The notes beneath the pieces were generated by a model, which made no database searches, was not told where the DNA came from, and saw only the letters and a program-made list of their open reading frames with translations. A stretch of DNA of 18,551 nt from UHGV virus genome UHGV-0121047; one strand, written 5' to 3'. Shown here piece by piece: positions 1 through 17,765 of the stretch (position 1 is the first letter of the stretch; every line of letters begins with the position of its first letter). Origin of the DNA: a virus. Made by a program: the position numbers and the translations under genes.

Positions 1-56
1 AAAGAAGGCACTAACTAAACGCCGCAACGGGGCTAAATAGCCCCAGATACCCTAAC

Positions 57-80
57 AGCCCCTACTCAAAGGGGCTTTTT
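57..80 (+). terminator. Rho-independent terminator (stem AGCCCCT/AGGGGCT, loop ACTCAA, then T-run), probably ending a plus-strand gene upstream of the window
   Basis: 7-bp perfect inverted repeat 57-63/70-76 followed by TTTT at 77-80; preceded by a second hairpin GGGGCT-AAAT-AGCCCC at 29-44. Confidence 0.55.
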
Positions 81-377
81 ACGTCTATGTAATAACCTCT
101 ATTAAACCCTTCCCTTTCCTTTCTAGAATCTTATCAGACCTTAAAAGCAATAACTCTATAGTCTACTCTATAGCCTTTTATCAAATCAACTTAAATACAA
201 GCCCATAACCCGAAAGGGAAGGGCAACCCCTTAAACGCTCTATAACAGCCTTATCAACCTAACTTAAGCAATCATATTAACCCACTCTAAAAAGCCCTTC
301 CTAGAGCTTCCCAGAGCCTTAAAAGAATCTTATAAGGGTGTAAGCTTTATCATCTCGTTAGTATTCTTGTGAATATC

Positions 378-1520
378 TAAAAAGGGCTTGTTAGTCACTA
401 AAAAGTATGTTATAGGGGCTATAAAGTTACTTTGAAGTAGCTTAAAAGTTACGTAAATACTAGCCCCCTTAACATTTTCTTAACAAATTCTTAACAAACC
501 CTACATAGTTATGCTTGTTAGCCCCTTGTTAAATCTCTGTTAAGACCACGTAAAAGCCTTGTAAGATTCTTTGACATAGCCTTTAAAGCCCCTGTAAAGC
601 CCTATAAAGAGCTATCCATACAGTTGAGGGGTAGATACTAGGAAGAGGCTTAAAAGGGGCTATACAGAGCTATAGAGAGCTTTTAAGAGGCATGTTTAGA
701 GAATCACTAAGAAAGGAAAGGGAACGATAAGAAAGGAGTAGTGACCATGTTAATAGTTTGTTAAAAAGATTAAACACTTGTTAGAAACTTGTTAATTATC
801 TTAACAAAATAACTCTTTAAAATTAACTTGTTAGCTCTTGTTAGTCACCTGTTAAGCGTCTGTAAAGACTATTCAGCACTTGTTAGAAAACTGTTACAGC
901 CTTGTTAGTTCTGTTAAGAAACTGTTAAGACCTTTGAAGAGTTGTTAAGAAGATGTGAGAACTGTTAATAGATTGTTAAGGATATTTTAAAATTTTGCAA
1001 AGTACTTGTAAGGGAGCTGTTAAGGGCTACCAAGCAGATATACATCCAAGACAGATATTTTTCAGTTCCTTCAAAGACCCTAAAAAATAACTTGATAGTC
1101 CTATTTTATAAAAATTTTAAGATTCTGAATAATTACCTATACAGTCTTTTAAAAATACAGGTAGAAACAGGCTTATAAGATACCTTGTTAGTACCGTGTT
1201 AGACCTTGTGAGATAAGGTCTGTAAAGATATTCCTGTTAAGTTTGTTAAAACAGTCTATATAGAGGCTTAGTAGTACCTAGTGAACACCTATAGAGGGTA
1301 TCATAGGTAACCTAGAGATTAAGAGGTGTATAGGAGCTTCTAAGAGGGTATAGAGAGATGGTTAAGGTGGTTGTATAGGTTGTTAAGAAGGCTTGTTAGA
1401 AGAGTGTTTAGAAGGCTTATACAGAGGGGCTATTAAGACCACTAGATAGATACTAAGATACTATATAGTACTATATAACTATATATAGAGAGTAAGCTTA
1501 AGAAGGTTGTTAAGAAGGAT
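378..1520. repeat. Dispersed array of about 30 short (C)TTGTTA(A/G) / CTGTTAAG boxes, with a dense phased core at 748-1022
   Basis: TGTTA occurrences at 748, 759, 779, 790, 829, 839, 850, 881, 892, 903, 912, 923, 943, 963, 974, 1018; spacings are mostly 10-11 or 20 bp; no ORF of 60 aa or more on either strand. Confidence 0.7.
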
Positions 1521-1580
1521 AGATATTTTATTCACATATGATGGTGACCCAGAGGTTGGGACAACCGATAAAATTTTATA

Positions 1581-1610
1581 AAAATTAAAAAGCCCCCAAT
1601 TAAGGAGGCT
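1581..1610 (-). terminator. Rho-independent terminator at the end of the minus-strand gene train
   Basis: Plus-strand AGCCCCC (1591-1597) / GGAGGCT (1604-1610) imperfect inverted repeat, preceded on plus by the A-rich run 1581-1590 (T-run on minus after the hairpin); lies just past the stop of the 1622-2227 gene. Confidence 0.5.
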
Positions 1611-1621
1611 CTTAAGATATT

Positions 1622-13801: not shown

Positions 13802-14359
13802 ATGAGATATTTGAAGTATGCTTCATGGATTTTCCTAGCTTTACTAGAACCATTTGCAGCATCCCTAGCAGTCATCTTAGCACCTTTCGTAGTTCCATTC
13901 TACAGTGAGAAGAAAGGACATCTACCTTTTGGATTCAGATGGATGGAGACCTATGACAACCCGATTGATGGTGATGAAGGCCACGTTAAAAGATGGGCTA
14001 AGATTAGAAAGATTGGTAAGCTGGGTGTCTACATGCAGAGAGTTGGATGGCTCTGGAGAAACAAAGCTTATAACTTCTCTTACCATGTACTAGGAAGAGA
14101 TATAAAAGATGTTACTAAGTGGAAAGGTAATATCAACGTAAGTTCTGACCCTGAAGATAATCAGACTGGTTATCTCCTAATGTGGAACAGTAATGCTTGG
14201 GGATTATTCGCTTTTATCCCATCAATTAAAGTCTTTGGTAAACAGTTTTACTGGAGAATTTATATTGGATGGAAACTAAAAAGTGTTGTCCCAGAAGAAA
14301 GAGCACTCTCAAGGGAAAGAGTTATGTTGGCATTCTTTATTCATCCACTGAGAAAGTAA
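13802..14359 (+). CDS. hypothetical membrane protein embedded in the tRNA array (185 aa)
   Basis: ATG 13802 with AAGAGG 11 nt upstream; N-terminal hydrophobic helix (SWIFLALLEPFAASLAVILAPFVVPF); Trp-rich body; flanked on both sides by tRNA genes. Confidence 0.7.
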   Translation: MRYLKYASWIFLALLEPFAASLAVILAPFVVPFYSEKKGHLPFGFRWMETYDNPIDGDEGHVKRWAKIRKIGKLGVYMQRVGWLWRNKAYNFSYHVLGRDIKDVTKWKGNINVSSDPEDNQTGYLLMWNSNAWGLFAFIPSIKVFGKQFYWRIYIGWKLKSVVPEERALSRERVMLAFFIHPLRK

Positions 14360-14367
14360 AGATTTAA

Positions 14368-14440
14368 AGGGGATTAGTTTACAAGGTTAAAACCTCGGTC
14401 TTTGAAATCGAAGAAGTTGGTTCAATTCCAACATCCCCCG
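14368..14440 (+). tRNA. tRNA-Gln (anticodon TTG)
   Basis: Anticodon arm TCGGT-CTTTGAA-ATCGA, T arm GTTGG-TTCAATT-CCAAC, acceptor AGGGGAT/ATCCCCC with unpaired 1:72, CCA encoded. Confidence 0.75.
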
Positions 14441-14445
14441 CCAAT

Positions 14446-14520
14446 GCTCCATTACTCCAATTGGCAGAGAGGCCAGACTTAAAATCTGTGTTATGTATCG
14501 GTTCGAATCCGATATGGAGT
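14446..14520 (+). tRNA. tRNA with Leu anticodon TAA but class I architecture
   Basis: Acceptor GCTCCAT/ATGGAGT, D region CCAATTGGCAGAG shared with the CAA tRNA, anticodon loop CTTAAAA, T arm ATCGG-TTCGAAT-CCGAT, CCA encoded. Confidence 0.6.
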
Positions 14521-14529
14521 ACCAAATTT

Positions 14530-14602
14530 AGCGGTATAGCATAACTGGCAATGCAGCAGCCTCTGAAGCTGTCCTATTAAGGTTCAAATCCTTATGCCGC
14601 TG
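14530..14602 (+). tRNA. tRNA-Gln (anticodon CTG)
   Basis: D arm GCAT/ATGC, anticodon arm GCAGC-CTCTGAA-GCTGT, T arm TAAGG-TTCAAAT-CCTTA, acceptor AGCGGTA/TGCCGCT, CCA encoded. Confidence 0.8.
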
Positions 14603-14636
14603 CCACTTCTAAGGATTCTTACGAGAGTCCTTAAAT

Positions 14637-14709
14637 GTGGCCTTATCATAAATGGTAATGACCCATGCTGTGAACATGGTCTATACGGGTTCAAATCCCG
14701 TAGGTCACC
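14637..14709 (+). tRNA. tRNA-His (anticodon GTG)
   Basis: D arm TCAT/ATGA, anticodon arm CCATG-CTGTGAA-CATGG, T arm ACGGG-TTCAAAT-CCCGT, discriminator C (bacterial His-type), CCA encoded. Confidence 0.8.
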
Positions 14710-14717
14710 CCAATTTA

Positions 14718-14792
14718 TAGTCCAAGTAGCTTATATGGTTAAAGCGCGTGTCTGAAAAACATGAGAAGAGGGTTCAAATCCCACTGGACTAC
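14718..14792 (+). tRNA. tRNA-Phe (anticodon GAA)
   Basis: Perfect acceptor TAGTCCA/TGGACTA, D arm GCTT/AAGC, anticodon arm CGTGT-CTGAAAA-ACACG, T-loop GGTTCAAATCC; 4-nt acceptor-to-D linker, so exact ends are uncertain by 1-2 nt. Confidence 0.65.
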
Positions 14793-14810
14793 CAATTTCA
14801 AAGGTGCTTA

Positions 14811-15545
14811 ATGAAAGAGATGACAGAACAAGGTAAGGAGATTTTTAATCTCTTAAAAACCGGTAAAGGGTTTTCTAACCCACTTATTACTGGTGCAGCA
14901 GTTCTCGGTGGAACCGTAGCTGCCTCTACATCACTTGTAAGCTCTATTAGCTCTGTAACAGACCCTACAATGAAGGAGAAGCTTGTTGCTGCTGGACTTA
15001 CAACAGTCCTTCTAAACAGCTTTACAACAAGCCTGACAAGCACTACAGCAACTACTAAGACCCTAACAGACTATGGTCAAAAGTCTATTGATGAGTTTTC
15101 ATCACGTATGCAGGTAGCAAAGGGATACTCCAATGTTATGGGTGCAGCAGGAGAACAAGTTGGTTGTACACCATTCAGTGGTATTATGGGTGTTGCTACA
15201 GAATATGGTCAAAAAGCTATTGACATGATGAACAGTACACTAGATAGTGTTAATGGTGTGTTAAGTGACTTACAAGACGCTATTGATAAGGGTCTTGATA
15301 CTGTTTCTGATTTGGCTAACCAAGCTGTTAGCAAGATTAATGAAGGTATCTCAAAGATTACAGCTTATGCAGATGAAGTTGTGCAGATGATTGAAGAAGA
15401 AGCTGCCCTTATTGCAGAGTACCTTAAAACGAATATCAATGGGTTCTTAGCAGGTATCTTACCAGACTGGTTTGATGATGCTTGTAAAACTGGTGTAATC
15501 GACACTATTGCAACACCAGAAATGAAGAACGCATTGCAGAAATAA
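14811..15545 (+). CDS. hypothetical Ser/Thr-rich protein embedded in the tRNA array (244 aa)
   Basis: In-frame ATG at 14811 with AAAGG 6 nt upstream; the six-frame ORF start at 14748 would lie inside tRNA-Phe and is rejected; Ser/Thr/Ala-rich N-terminal half, helical C-terminal half. Confidence 0.7.
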   Translation: MKEMTEQGKEIFNLLKTGKGFSNPLITGAAVLGGTVAASTSLVSSISSVTDPTMKEKLVAAGLTTVLLNSFTTSLTSTTATTKTLTDYGQKSIDEFSSRMQVAKGYSNVMGAAGEQVGCTPFSGIMGVATEYGQKAIDMMNSTLDSVNGVLSDLQDAIDKGLDTVSDLANQAVSKINEGISKITAYADEVVQMIEEEAALIAEYLKTNINGFLAGILPDWFDDACKTGVIDTIATPEMKNALQK

Positions 15546-15546
15546 T

Positions 15547-15635
15547 GGAAGATTAACCCTAAAAGGTAAGGGAGCAGTTTGCTAAACTGCCAGTAGCTGA
15601 GAAATCGGTGTACCAGTTCAAGTCTGGTATCTTCC
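15547..15635 (+). tRNA. tRNA-Ser (anticodon GCT), class II
   Basis: Perfect acceptor GGAAGAT/ATCTTCC, anticodon arm GCAGT-TTGCTAA-ACTGC, 19-nt variable arm, T arm ACCAG-TTCAAGT-CTGGT, CCA encoded. Confidence 0.8.
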
Positions 15636-15642
15636 TCCAATT

Positions 15643-15715
15643 TGAATCCGTGACAGAAATGGATATGTGCCTGTCTGCAAAACAGGTTTATAAGGGTTCA
15701 AGTCCCTTCGGATTC
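15643..15715 (+). tRNA. tRNA-Cys (anticodon GCA)
   Basis: Perfect acceptor GAATCCG/CGGATTC, anticodon arm CCTGT-CTGCAAA-ACAGG, T-loop GGTTCAAGTCC, CCA encoded. Confidence 0.8.
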
Positions 15716-15756
15716 TCCAAGTTATTTTACTCTCTCTCAATTAAAATAATAATAAT

Positions 15757-15941: not shown

Positions 15942-16142
15942 ATGAGCGAGACCGTTTATAAAGAACTTTATGAAGCTAATAAAAAGCTAGAATTTATGCA
16001 GAACACTATCATGGCAATTGCAGATAGATTATCTGTAGCAACAGGTATTGATATTAAAGAAGCATCTATGGATGCACTTCTTGATGCTGTTGATGCAAAG
16101 TTCGAAGTTAAGAAAGAAGAGACTGCTACAGACTCTGAATAA
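15942..16142 (+). CDS. small acidic hypothetical protein immediately upstream of the terminase large subunit (66 aa)
   Basis: ATG 15942 with GGAG about 8 nt upstream; position suggests a packaging-associated protein but 66 aa is short for a small terminase. Confidence 0.55.
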   Translation: MSETVYKELYEANKKLEFMQNTIMAIADRLSVATGIDIKEASMDALLDAVDAKFEVKKEETATDSE

Positions 16143-16163
16143 TTCTATTTGCGGAGGCGCTTA

Positions 16164-17765
16164 ATGGACTTAAATGCTGTTAAGCAGAAGCGAGTGGAAG
16201 ATGTTAGGAAAGTCCTAGCTGGAGAGTTGGGGCTTTCTGATGAAGTAAAAGAAATTATCAAATCATTCGGTAAAGACCCCTCTAAATTCCTTCCAACTCA
16301 AATTCTGACTTTATTAAGATACACACCAGACCAAGTTCGCCTTATCTTTAAATTGATGACTGATAAGAACTATGTAGCCCCTCAACCGGGTTCTCAAGAG
16401 GTCTTTTTAAACACTAATGCTGACTTGGTTCTTTATGGTGGTGCTGCTGGTGCTGGTAAAACTGCCGCATTGTTAATGGACTCTTTAAGATTTATTGAAG
16501 ACCCTAACTATAATGCTGTATATTTCCGTCGAAATACAACACAGTTACAAGGTGGTTTATGGCCTGCTGCAAAGAAACTATTTGGTAAGTTTGGTGGGAT
16601 TCCTCACGAGCAGAAAATGACTATCACATTCCCTTCTGGGGCGACTATCAAGTTTACCTATCTAGAACTTGAAAAGCACGCTGAAGGTCATCAGGGTATT
16701 GAATACTCAGCTATTTACTTTGACGAAGGTACACACTTCTCTGCTTCACAGATTTCATACCTACAAACTCGTCTACGTTCTGGTGCTGAAGGCGATTCAT
16801 ACATGAAGATTTCCATGAACCCAGACAGAGACCATTTTATTTATGATTGGGTAGAACCATTCTTAGATGAAGAAGGTTATCCAGACCCTGAAAAGTGTGG
16901 TCGTATTCGTTGGTATGTAATGAATGATGGTGTGATGGTTTCTGATTGGGAGAGAGACAAGATTCTTGAAATGTTCCCTCTTGAGATTCCTCAAACATAC
17001 ACCTTCATCTCTGGTACGATTGATGATAACCCAATTCTTGACTTCTTAGAACCTAAGTACCGTGGTAAGTTGGAAAACAACACCCCTGTAAACGTTGCAA
17101 GACTTCGTTTCGGTAACTGGAAGGCTCGTGCAGAAGGTTCAAACTATTGGCAAAGACAATGGTGTGAGATTGTTGATTCACTTCCAGAAGATGTATTCGA
17201 TGTTAGAGCATGGGACTTAGCAGCAACTTTACCATCTGAGATTAACCCTAATCCAGACTGGACAGCGGGTGTTAAGATGGGTAAATCTAAAAAAGACGGT
17301 TGCTATTATATCATTGATGTAGTAAGATTTAGAGATAGACCCTCTGGAGTCGAAACACAAATTAATTTGACTGCTGAAAGTGACGGTAAGCGAACTGGTA
17401 TTTTTATCCCTCAAGACCCAGGCGCTGCTGGTAAATCCTACGCAACATCCCTCATCAGGAAACTTGCCGAGAAAGGTTATCGTGCAAGAGCTAAACCAAC
17501 AAATAAAGATAAAGTTACCCGATTTGCGGGGTTTTCTGCTGCTTCTGAAGCTGGACTTGTAAAAGTTTTGAGAGGTAGTTGGAACGAAGCTTATTTCCAA
17601 GAGCTTGAAGGCTTTTGTGGTGATGGCAAAACTAAAGATGACCAAGTGGATGCTACCAGTGATGCTTTCAACAGTCTTAACGAAGTTAAATTATTCAAGC
17701 CACCATCAATGGGTGCTCACACAGACTTAGTGAGAGGAAACCCATATGAGGGGCTTAGACGTTGA
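16164..17765 (+). CDS. terminase large subunit
   Basis: Walker A-type motif LYGGAAGAGKT near the N-terminus and a hydrophobic-DE Walker B-like motif (IYFDEG); about 530 aa; followed directly by a portal-like gene. Start placed at ATG 16164 (GGAGG 7 nt upstream) rather than the in-frame TTG at 16149. Confidence 0.85.
   Translation: MDLNAVKQKRVEDVRKVLAGELGLSDEVKEIIKSFGKDPSKFLPTQILTLLRYTPDQVRLIFKLMTDKNYVAPQPGSQEVFLNTNADLVLYGGAAGAGKTAALLMDSLRFIEDPNYNAVYFRRNTTQLQGGLWPAAKKLFGKFGGIPHEQKMTITFPSGATIKFTYLELEKHAEGHQGIEYSAIYFDEGTHFSASQISYLQTRLRSGAEGDSYMKISMNPDRDHFIYDWVEPFLDEEGYPDPEKCGRIRWYVMNDGVMVSDWERDKILEMFPLEIPQTYTFISGTIDDNPILDFLEPKYRGKLENNTPVNVARLRFGNWKARAEGSNYWQRQWCEIVDSLPEDVFDVRAWDLAATLPSEINPNPDWTAGVKMGKSKKDGCYYIIDVVRFRDRPSGVETQINLTAESDGKRTGIFIPQDPGAAGKSYATSLIRKLAEKGYRARAKPTNKDKVTRFAGFSAASEAGLVKVLRGSWNEAYFQELEGFCGDGKTKDDQVDATSDAFNSLNEVKLFKPPSMGAHTDLVRGNPYEGLRR

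Follow-up and report, generated by a model that had tools for sequence, protein, structure and literature searches.

Which function could keep some thirty copies of a short box in a piece of phage DNA that holds no gene? This question is raised by a gap of about 1.6 kb near one end of the window, by which we mean the whole analysed stretch of 18,551 nucleotides of the viral genome UHGV-0121047 (all positions refer to it). The initial annotation, made from the sequence alone, had described about 30 TGTTA-core boxes in an ORF-free region (378-1520) and had listed a replication origin, a partition site, a packaging-related site and a binding array for a phage regulator as possible functions. We found that packaging is favoured among these, given a direct terminal repeat (DTR) and the bracketing sequences at its boundaries, whereas a partition site remained without support in what is a lytic phage.

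A noncoding gap with helically phased boxes

The gap (18..1621) separates two convergent gene blocks: in annotated relatives the genes on the + strand end at its left side and the genes on the - strand start at 1622. Both blocks are closed by a terminator-like hairpin that faces inward, one ending the rightward block (57..76, + strand; phages Tribble and Michonne have an annotated terminator at the corresponding position) and one ending the leftward block (1588..1613, - strand). ORFs of 60 aa or more had been reported to be absent, and the longest ORF in 20-1615 is indeed only 35 aa. A periodicity of 10-12 bp runs throughout the gap, as base autocorrelation peaked at lags 10-12 in the left flank, in the right flank and in the segment between them that corresponds to the DTR, while coding controls displayed the 3-nt codon period only. 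The indels among nine genomes, over the whole 1.6-kb gap including the flanks of the DTR, also measure about 11, 22 or 33 bp.

The number of boxes is far above that in shuffled sequence. We counted 28 exact copies of TGTTA in 378-1520, against 2.7 ± 1.6 expected (a maximum of 10 in 2000 dinucleotide-preserving shuffles), and 24 copies of the extended box [CT]TGTTA[AG], against 1.0 expected from the same shuffles. Five TGTAA variants and four inverted copies (TTAACA at 469, 480 and 491, with TAACA cores at 470, 481 and 492, and a further TAACA core at 802) bring the total in this region to about 37 sites. The forward array proper, (C)TTGTTAG / CTGTTAAGA, extends over 514..1026 on the + strand with 19 TGTTA and 4 TGTAA cores on one helical face; from 516 rightward every box is forward except the inverted copy at 802.

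The boxes were also said to be spaced by 10-11 or 20 bp and to fall on one face of the helix in the dense core (748-1022), which our measurements bear out. Spacings in this core are 11, 20, 11, 39, 10, 11, 11, 20 and 11 bp and, continuing to the right end, 11, 9, 11, 20, 20, 11, 33 and 11 bp. Phase coherence reaches R = 0.83 at 10.3 bp, a value attained by 4 of 5000 random placements (with a minimum distance of 9 bp between boxes), and for all 23 forward boxes in 500-1031 it is R = 0.75 at 10.40 bp, attained by none of 5000. The phase of the latter set persists over an interval of 155 bp that is devoid of boxes. Coherence at 10.40 bp places the boxes on a single face of B-form DNA for a length of about 530 bp. 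The array is confined to the genome ends, as in the complete genome of vB_EcoM_D4 the first kb holds 27 copies of TGTTA, compared to an interior mean of 1.7 per kb and an interior maximum of 5.

The array within the terminal repeat of Felix O1-type phages

The 1.6-kb stretch matches 267 phage records, of which 208 cover the greater part of it with 80-93% identity. The matching records belong to Felix O1, to other Felixounavirus and Mooglevirus phages and, weakly, to Kolesnikvirus (Erwinia) phages, and on this similarity the window is assigned to a Felixounavirus (Felix O1-like) phage. One record labelled as a 'Staphylococcus' phage matches the Felix O1-type region as well, probably through mislabelling or contamination in the source.

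Several records start exactly at window position 463 (Ro111lw, ZX4221, vB_EcoM_D4, NBEco005 and NBEco004) or end at 1030/1031 (EcSzw_1 and pEP20), and each of these has a second match at its opposite end. In vB_EcoM_D4 a 581-bp repeat is present at both ends with 100% identity and its ends align to window positions 463 and 1031; the perfect 613-bp repeat of Ro111lw has the same boundaries. The DTR of Ro111lw was established at 613 bp by PhageTerm (PMC6454146), on which the ends of D4 are likewise based, and that of UAB_Phi87 at 608 bp by Bal31 digestion and run-off sequencing (PMC4837284). The UAB_Phi87 record is 85.5% identical to the region and has 614 bp between the conserved boundary sequences. 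From homology to D4, Ro111lw and UAB_Phi87 we predict a DTR of 569 bp at 463..1031, of which the window would contain a single collapsed copy and the virion DNA a copy at both ends. The array coincides with the DTR of the relatives and, because their physical ends correspond to 463 and 1031, the dense core lies wholly inside the predicted repeat. The DTR itself is already known for Felixounavirus. In the Felix O1 genome paper 'short terminal repeats' were inferred from size alone and the gap is not discussed (PMC3185647), and two genome papers of Felix O1-type phages present a short terminal repeat without internal structure and without a small terminase (PMC3185647, PMC4837284).

Both boundaries of the DTR carry a box-containing sequence, here called a bracket, and the two brackets are inverted relative to each other. 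The left bracket, TAGCCCCCTTAACA (461..474, - strand), places an inverted box beside the predicted left cut site and is kept in nine genomes; the three inverted TTAACA boxes, 11 bp apart, are found at this left end of the DTR (469..497, - strand). The right bracket, TGTTAAGGGCTA at 1018-1029, is an inverted copy of the left one. Together with the junction it occupies 1018..1044 (+ strand) and reads TGTTAAGGGCTACC followed by AAGCAGATATACA, with the predicted right cut site between the two, after 1031; these 27 nt are invariant in all nine aligned genomes. The lengths of the repeat as defined by the brackets are 569, 570, 571, 591, 613, 614 and 633 bp among the genomes. Since 466-498 and 994-1026, at the two ends of the DTR, are imperfect inverted copies of each other, both virion ends are predicted to finish with ...TGTTAAGGGnn-3', with the outward-pointing box at 6-8 nt from the terminus. 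Boxes adjoin both boundaries in inverted orientation, and clustered short repeats beside the terminase cut sites are a feature of sites of the pac/cosB type.

The initial annotation had proposed to look at the conservation of box positions in related phages. In an alignment of nine genomes from two genera, the box columns in the DTR were 98% conserved versus 84% for the other columns, and most boxes were intact in all nine. The boxes are thus conserved, which points to selection acting on them. In six further genomes, differing in the length of the repeat, the phase of the forward boxes is 10.40-10.45 bp. Erwinia phage M7 has only about 80 nt that can be aligned to the window, yet it has a perfect 444-bp terminal repeat with inverted TTAACA boxes at the left end, TGTTAAGA boxes toward the right end and boundary sequences related to those of the window (TTAGCCACTTTTACA at the left and ...GGCCACTAA followed by GTAGATATACA at the right); its global phase coherence is weaker (R = 0.67, p ~0.08). 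In Erwinia phage phiEa104 the equivalent gap of 1.46 kb holds 21 forward boxes. At each end the M7 repeat, as deposited, reaches 2-3 nt beyond the PhageTerm-based coliphage ends (window 461-463 and 1029-1031), an offset that could reflect either differences in method or a real difference in cut position.

The two flanks of the DTR differ in character. The second repeat family that had been noted, TATAGAG, is real but small: TATAGA occurs five times forward (671-1484) and four times as its complement (97-238), compared to about 0.3 at the frequency found in the remainder of the window. The repeats of this type appear as complements (CTCTATA) in the left flank (97..245, - strand), where the top strand is C-rich, and in forward orientation inside and right of the DTR (671-1490). 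The C-rich part of the left stretch that had been described as CT-rich was also recovered, with a GC skew of -0.28 in 1-500, followed by +0.18 and +0.27 to the right. The orientations of the TATAGAG-type repeats and the flip in GC skew near 500 suggest that the gap is organised as two inverted arms around a centre near the left terminus. In the right flank (1032..1585, + strand) forward boxes continue at 1186-1508, alongside TATAGAG-type repeats, and there is an AT-rich stretch at about 1076-1165, some 45 bp outside the right boundary of the DTR, which might be an unwinding element if the region were also an origin. Furthermore, a perfect 15-nt inverted repeat formed by a polypyrimidine/polypurine run (TTCCCTTTCCTTTCT / AGAAAGGAAAGGGAA) has one arm in the left flank (110-124) and the other inside the terminal repeat (710-724).

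A candidate box-binding protein and the terminase genes

The product of the gene at 8833..9204 (+ strand) had been suggested as a candidate for binding the boxes. It is a protein of 123 aa with a DUF5681 domain (Pfam E = 2e-14) and an AT-hook-like N-terminal arm. The N-terminal motif FKKGQSGNPxGRPKGSRN is invariant or nearly so among its homologues, and the best PDB sequence match of the motif profile was the second AT-hook of HMGA1 (PRGRPKGSKNK), although this match is weak (E = 0.15). In a motif scan of viral contigs outside the Felix O1-type group, a large terminase gene directly followed the motif-bearing gene in at least 51 of 64 loci, a sample that was chosen by the N-terminal motif and so shows the company of the motif and not the identity of the whole protein. 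In 44 of the 64 the start of an ORF resembling a reference large terminase lies no more than 400 nt downstream, and of the remaining downstream ORFs seven were tested in Pfam, all seven being large terminases of other families. Metagenomic contigs with distant homologues gave a similar picture, as in two of three the gene overlaps the start of the large terminase gene. Proteins with the DUF5681 N-terminal motif are thus encoded immediately upstream of large terminase genes. By this position the motif appears to mark small terminase subunits, and the product of 8833-9204 is probably such a subunit, judging from the gene position in other phages; we infer that it may be the protein that binds the boxes.

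Structure and family searches added little to this assignment. The AF2 model shows a disordered arm and two long helices at low confidence (pLDDT 68), and a Foldseek search of the PDB with this low-confidence model gave no significant match, with small terminases appearing only at E ~5. NCBIfam has no family for the protein or its relatives, and PHROGs lists them as of unknown function, with one marginal match to a small terminase (E = 0.009). No box arrays were found within the 4-kb flanks of distant DUF5681 genes at four metagenomic loci. A partial DUF5681 protein identical to that of the window is filed under Staphylococcus aureus, again probably by mislabelling or contamination.

The large terminase subunit, which is the presumed nuclease cutting at the brackets, is encoded at 16149..17765 (+ strand; Pfam Terminase_6N and Terminase_6C, PHROG 979). 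In the papers on Felix O1 and UAB_Phi87 a large terminase was described and no recognisable small subunit (PMC3185647, PMC4837284). The gene at 8833-9204 lies about 8 kb from the array and about 7 kb from the large terminase gene, from which it is separated by a Ro60-like gene, 23 tRNA genes and a few ORFs. The first of these (9286-10701, + strand) encodes a protein of 471 aa with DUF2828/DUF7788 that belongs to a PHROG family named 'RNA-binding protein' and lies directly upstream of the tRNA cluster; its counterpart in Bas63, gp130, is reported in a preprint to be Ro60-like and to counter the ppl defence system (10.1101/2024.10.10.617714). The 23 tRNA genes (10867-15719, + strand) are interspersed with small ORFs and thus lie between the candidate small and the large terminase genes; this region also encodes conserved, functionally uncharacterised proteins with DUF7217 (14748-15545, + strand, similar to a PHROG with a GTP-binding domain) and DUF7338 (13802-14359, + strand). 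The usual position of a small terminase gene, immediately upstream of the large terminase gene, is taken by an acidic ORF of 66 aa (15942-16142, + strand), which belongs to PHROG 4397 (unknown function) and for which no Pfam match and no DNA-binding features were detected.

A probable role of the array in packaging, and alternatives

The array is probably the region by which this Felix O1-type phage recognises its DNA for packaging and defines the genome ends, a reading that draws on sequence comparison and is favoured because the dense core lies inside the DTR and because box-containing inverted sequences are present at both DTR boundaries. In replicating concatemers, a phage protein would occupy the approximately 25 phased TGTTA boxes on one side of the helix. 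The most likely binder is the candidate small terminase encoded at 8833-9204, whose AT-hook-like arm may contact the minor groove at the TTAA of the boxes. The resulting nucleoprotein complex would position the large terminase at the two outward-pointing bracket boxes, where it would nick the top strand before 463 and the opposite, bottom strand after 1031. Strand-displacement synthesis would then duplicate the repeat, so that both ends of each packaged genome carry it. Duplication of the repeat by nicking and strand displacement is the established model for ends of the T7 type. Boxes in the flanks, together with the 11-bp unit structure that runs through the gap, may extend or stabilise the complex. 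The protein bound, the positions of the nicks and the packaging role are in this scheme all deduced from sequence. Points against it include the number of sites, as some 25 over 530 bp far exceed what known pac or cos sites need, the distance of about 8 kb between the candidate small terminase gene and the array, the low confidence of the structure model of the candidate and the weakness of its AT-hook match. In many pac phages the site is located in or next to the small terminase gene, which is common but not universal; here the array (378-1520) lies apart from the candidate gene (8833-9204).

A more specific possibility, which we consider doubtful and put forward tentatively, is that the array is a molecular ruler in which the protein filament itself defines the boundaries and the length of the DTR. 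In this case a small terminase equipped with an AT-hook arm in place of the usual helix-turn-helix would polymerise along one face over the roughly 25 boxes into a nucleoprotein filament of about 550 bp, and the outward-facing boxes at its ends would tell the large terminase where to nick.

Among known systems the CCTAAAG heptamer arrays of T7 and T3, reportedly the SRL and SRR of Dunn and Studier, come closest. In the T7 sequence we located three copies of CCTAAAG within the 160-bp repeat and, at 175-334, an array that has a 13-bp period. Both in T7/T3 and here, a short exact DTR contains short boxes in one orientation and arrays are present in the adjoining unique DNA. The differences are that the T7 box recurs with a 13-bp and thus not helical period, whereas (C)TTGTTA(A/G) recurs every 10.4-11 bp, that T7 has about 12 copies over 160 bp and the array here about 25 phased copies over 530 bp plus the flanks, and that the terminases are of different families. 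The inverted box-containing brackets at the cut sites were counted as a further difference, in a comparison that covered the heptamers of T7. We therefore regard the array as an analogue of the T7 heptamer arrays, the nearest that is known, and as a homologue of none of the systems compared. The ends of the T7 genome tolerate most insertions, with an exception close to where the left repeat ends on its inner side (preprint 10.1101/2024.10.10.617714), and because of this tolerance such end arrays may be redundant or dispensable.

The hexamer clusters of P1 pac, the pacL and pacR boxes of SPP1 and the R sites of lambda cosB are sites of terminase recognition, where the nuclease is positioned through binding of the small subunit to several short repeats that flank the cut site. 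They comprise 3-7 repeats within 100-200 bp and serve headful or cos packaging, whereas here about 25 boxes are connected to the formation of a DTR; their binding is experimental, whereas the array is known from its sequence. A different likeness is found in the tandem sites of the Pho-box type, which are bound head-to-tail by response regulators of the OmpR/PhoB family in 2-4 units. There, a 7-bp direct repeat and a 4-bp A/T-rich spacer also form an 11-bp unit (CTGTTAAGAAA here versus CTGTCATA(A/T)A in the Pho-box), and such a unit fits head-to-tail binding on one face. The contact positions differ, however, and instead of a winged-helix protein there is here a candidate with an AT-hook-like arm.

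The main alternative to packaging and end definition, though an unlikely one, is a replication origin at which a phage initiator would bind the boxes as iterons and the AT-rich segment at about 1076-1165 would be the unwinding element; an origin role could also co-exist with packaging. Phased direct repeats with an adjoining AT-rich segment indeed make up the layout of iteron origins such as lambda ori and plasmid oriV, the array is unique in the genome, and the GC skew changes sign near 500. Iterons, however, are usually 17-22 bp long, occur in 3-7 copies and lie beside an initiator gene, whereas here a core of 5-7 bp in an 11-bp unit occurs in about 25 copies that are tied to the genome ends, and we know of no initiator gene for the array. 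Mapping of the origin by GC skew, as the initial annotation had advised, gave no origin signal at the array, since the cumulative skew over the whole genome follows the direction of transcription. DnaA boxes are not enriched in the window (19 versus 24 expected), the IHF consensus had no matches, and the AT-rich stretch is located outside the repeat. Moreover, the boxes coincide with the DTR and, in inverted orientation, with both cut sites, which an origin does not require.

Quite improbable is a role in the handling of the DNA ends that is unrelated to terminase, with a phage or host protein coating the boxes on incoming linear DNA and so protecting the ends or pairing the terminal repeats for recombination into concatemers. 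The presence of the array at both virion ends, with the same outward-pointing terminal motif at each, is in line with such a role, and a long phased array is well suited to cooperative coating or pairing. The analysis yielded no candidate for an end-binding protein, however, and the boxes reach well outside the repeat into the unique flanks; at the level of the sequence nothing separates end coating from binding by terminase.

Very improbable is a neutral satellite, that is, an 11-bp unit expanding and contracting by slippage or unequal exchange in a dispensable noncoding repeat. Although the 11-bp steps of the indels and the range in DTR length from 569 to 633 bp among relatives would be expected of such a satellite, only the core of 5-7 bp is fixed and the spacers differ between units and between genomes, which makes it unlikely because a homogenising satellite would conserve whole units. 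In addition, the orientation and the helical phase of the boxes are maintained, and boxes survive in the Erwinia genus, where the surrounding DNA can no longer be aligned.

Least probable of all is a transcriptional element (clustered promoters or operators, or a gene for a noncoding RNA), to which the likeness of TTGTTA to a -35 hexamer and the conservation of a noncoding region might point, but sigma-70-like promoters are not enriched in the gap region (5 versus 4.3 expected), the inward-facing terminators close the gap on both sides, an Rfam scan of 1-1700 gave nothing in the array (only a sub-threshold match of a Phe leader to the terminator, at 1583-1643), the fold of the DTR RNA (z ~ -1.8 on both strands) is explained by the inverted repeat of the DTR ends, for which reason a noncoding RNA was dropped, and 11-bp indels fit neither coding sequence nor a fixed RNA structure. 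The location between convergent, terminated gene blocks and the chance number of promoters also make a regulator-binding array unlikely.

In the searchable literature, the coverage of which is incomplete, neither the array nor the brackets nor the small-terminase candidate was found to be described. A phased array of this size and conservation is unusual, yet it belongs to a class of elements that specialists expect near phage termini. Wide use is made of Felix O1-type phages in Salmonella typing, in biocontrol and as an engineering chassis. When these phages are engineered, it is unwise to regard the 1.6-kb gap as free space for cargo, and assemblies are best opened at 463, with the repeat at both ends. 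If the array were a molecular ruler, this would give a concrete answer to the question how phages with a DTR choose their two cut sites, and would identify the small terminase that Felix O1-type phages reportedly lack. The array within the terminal repeat, the inverted brackets and the candidate binder together make the recognition and duplication of the ends of DTR phages approachable in the Felix O1-type group.
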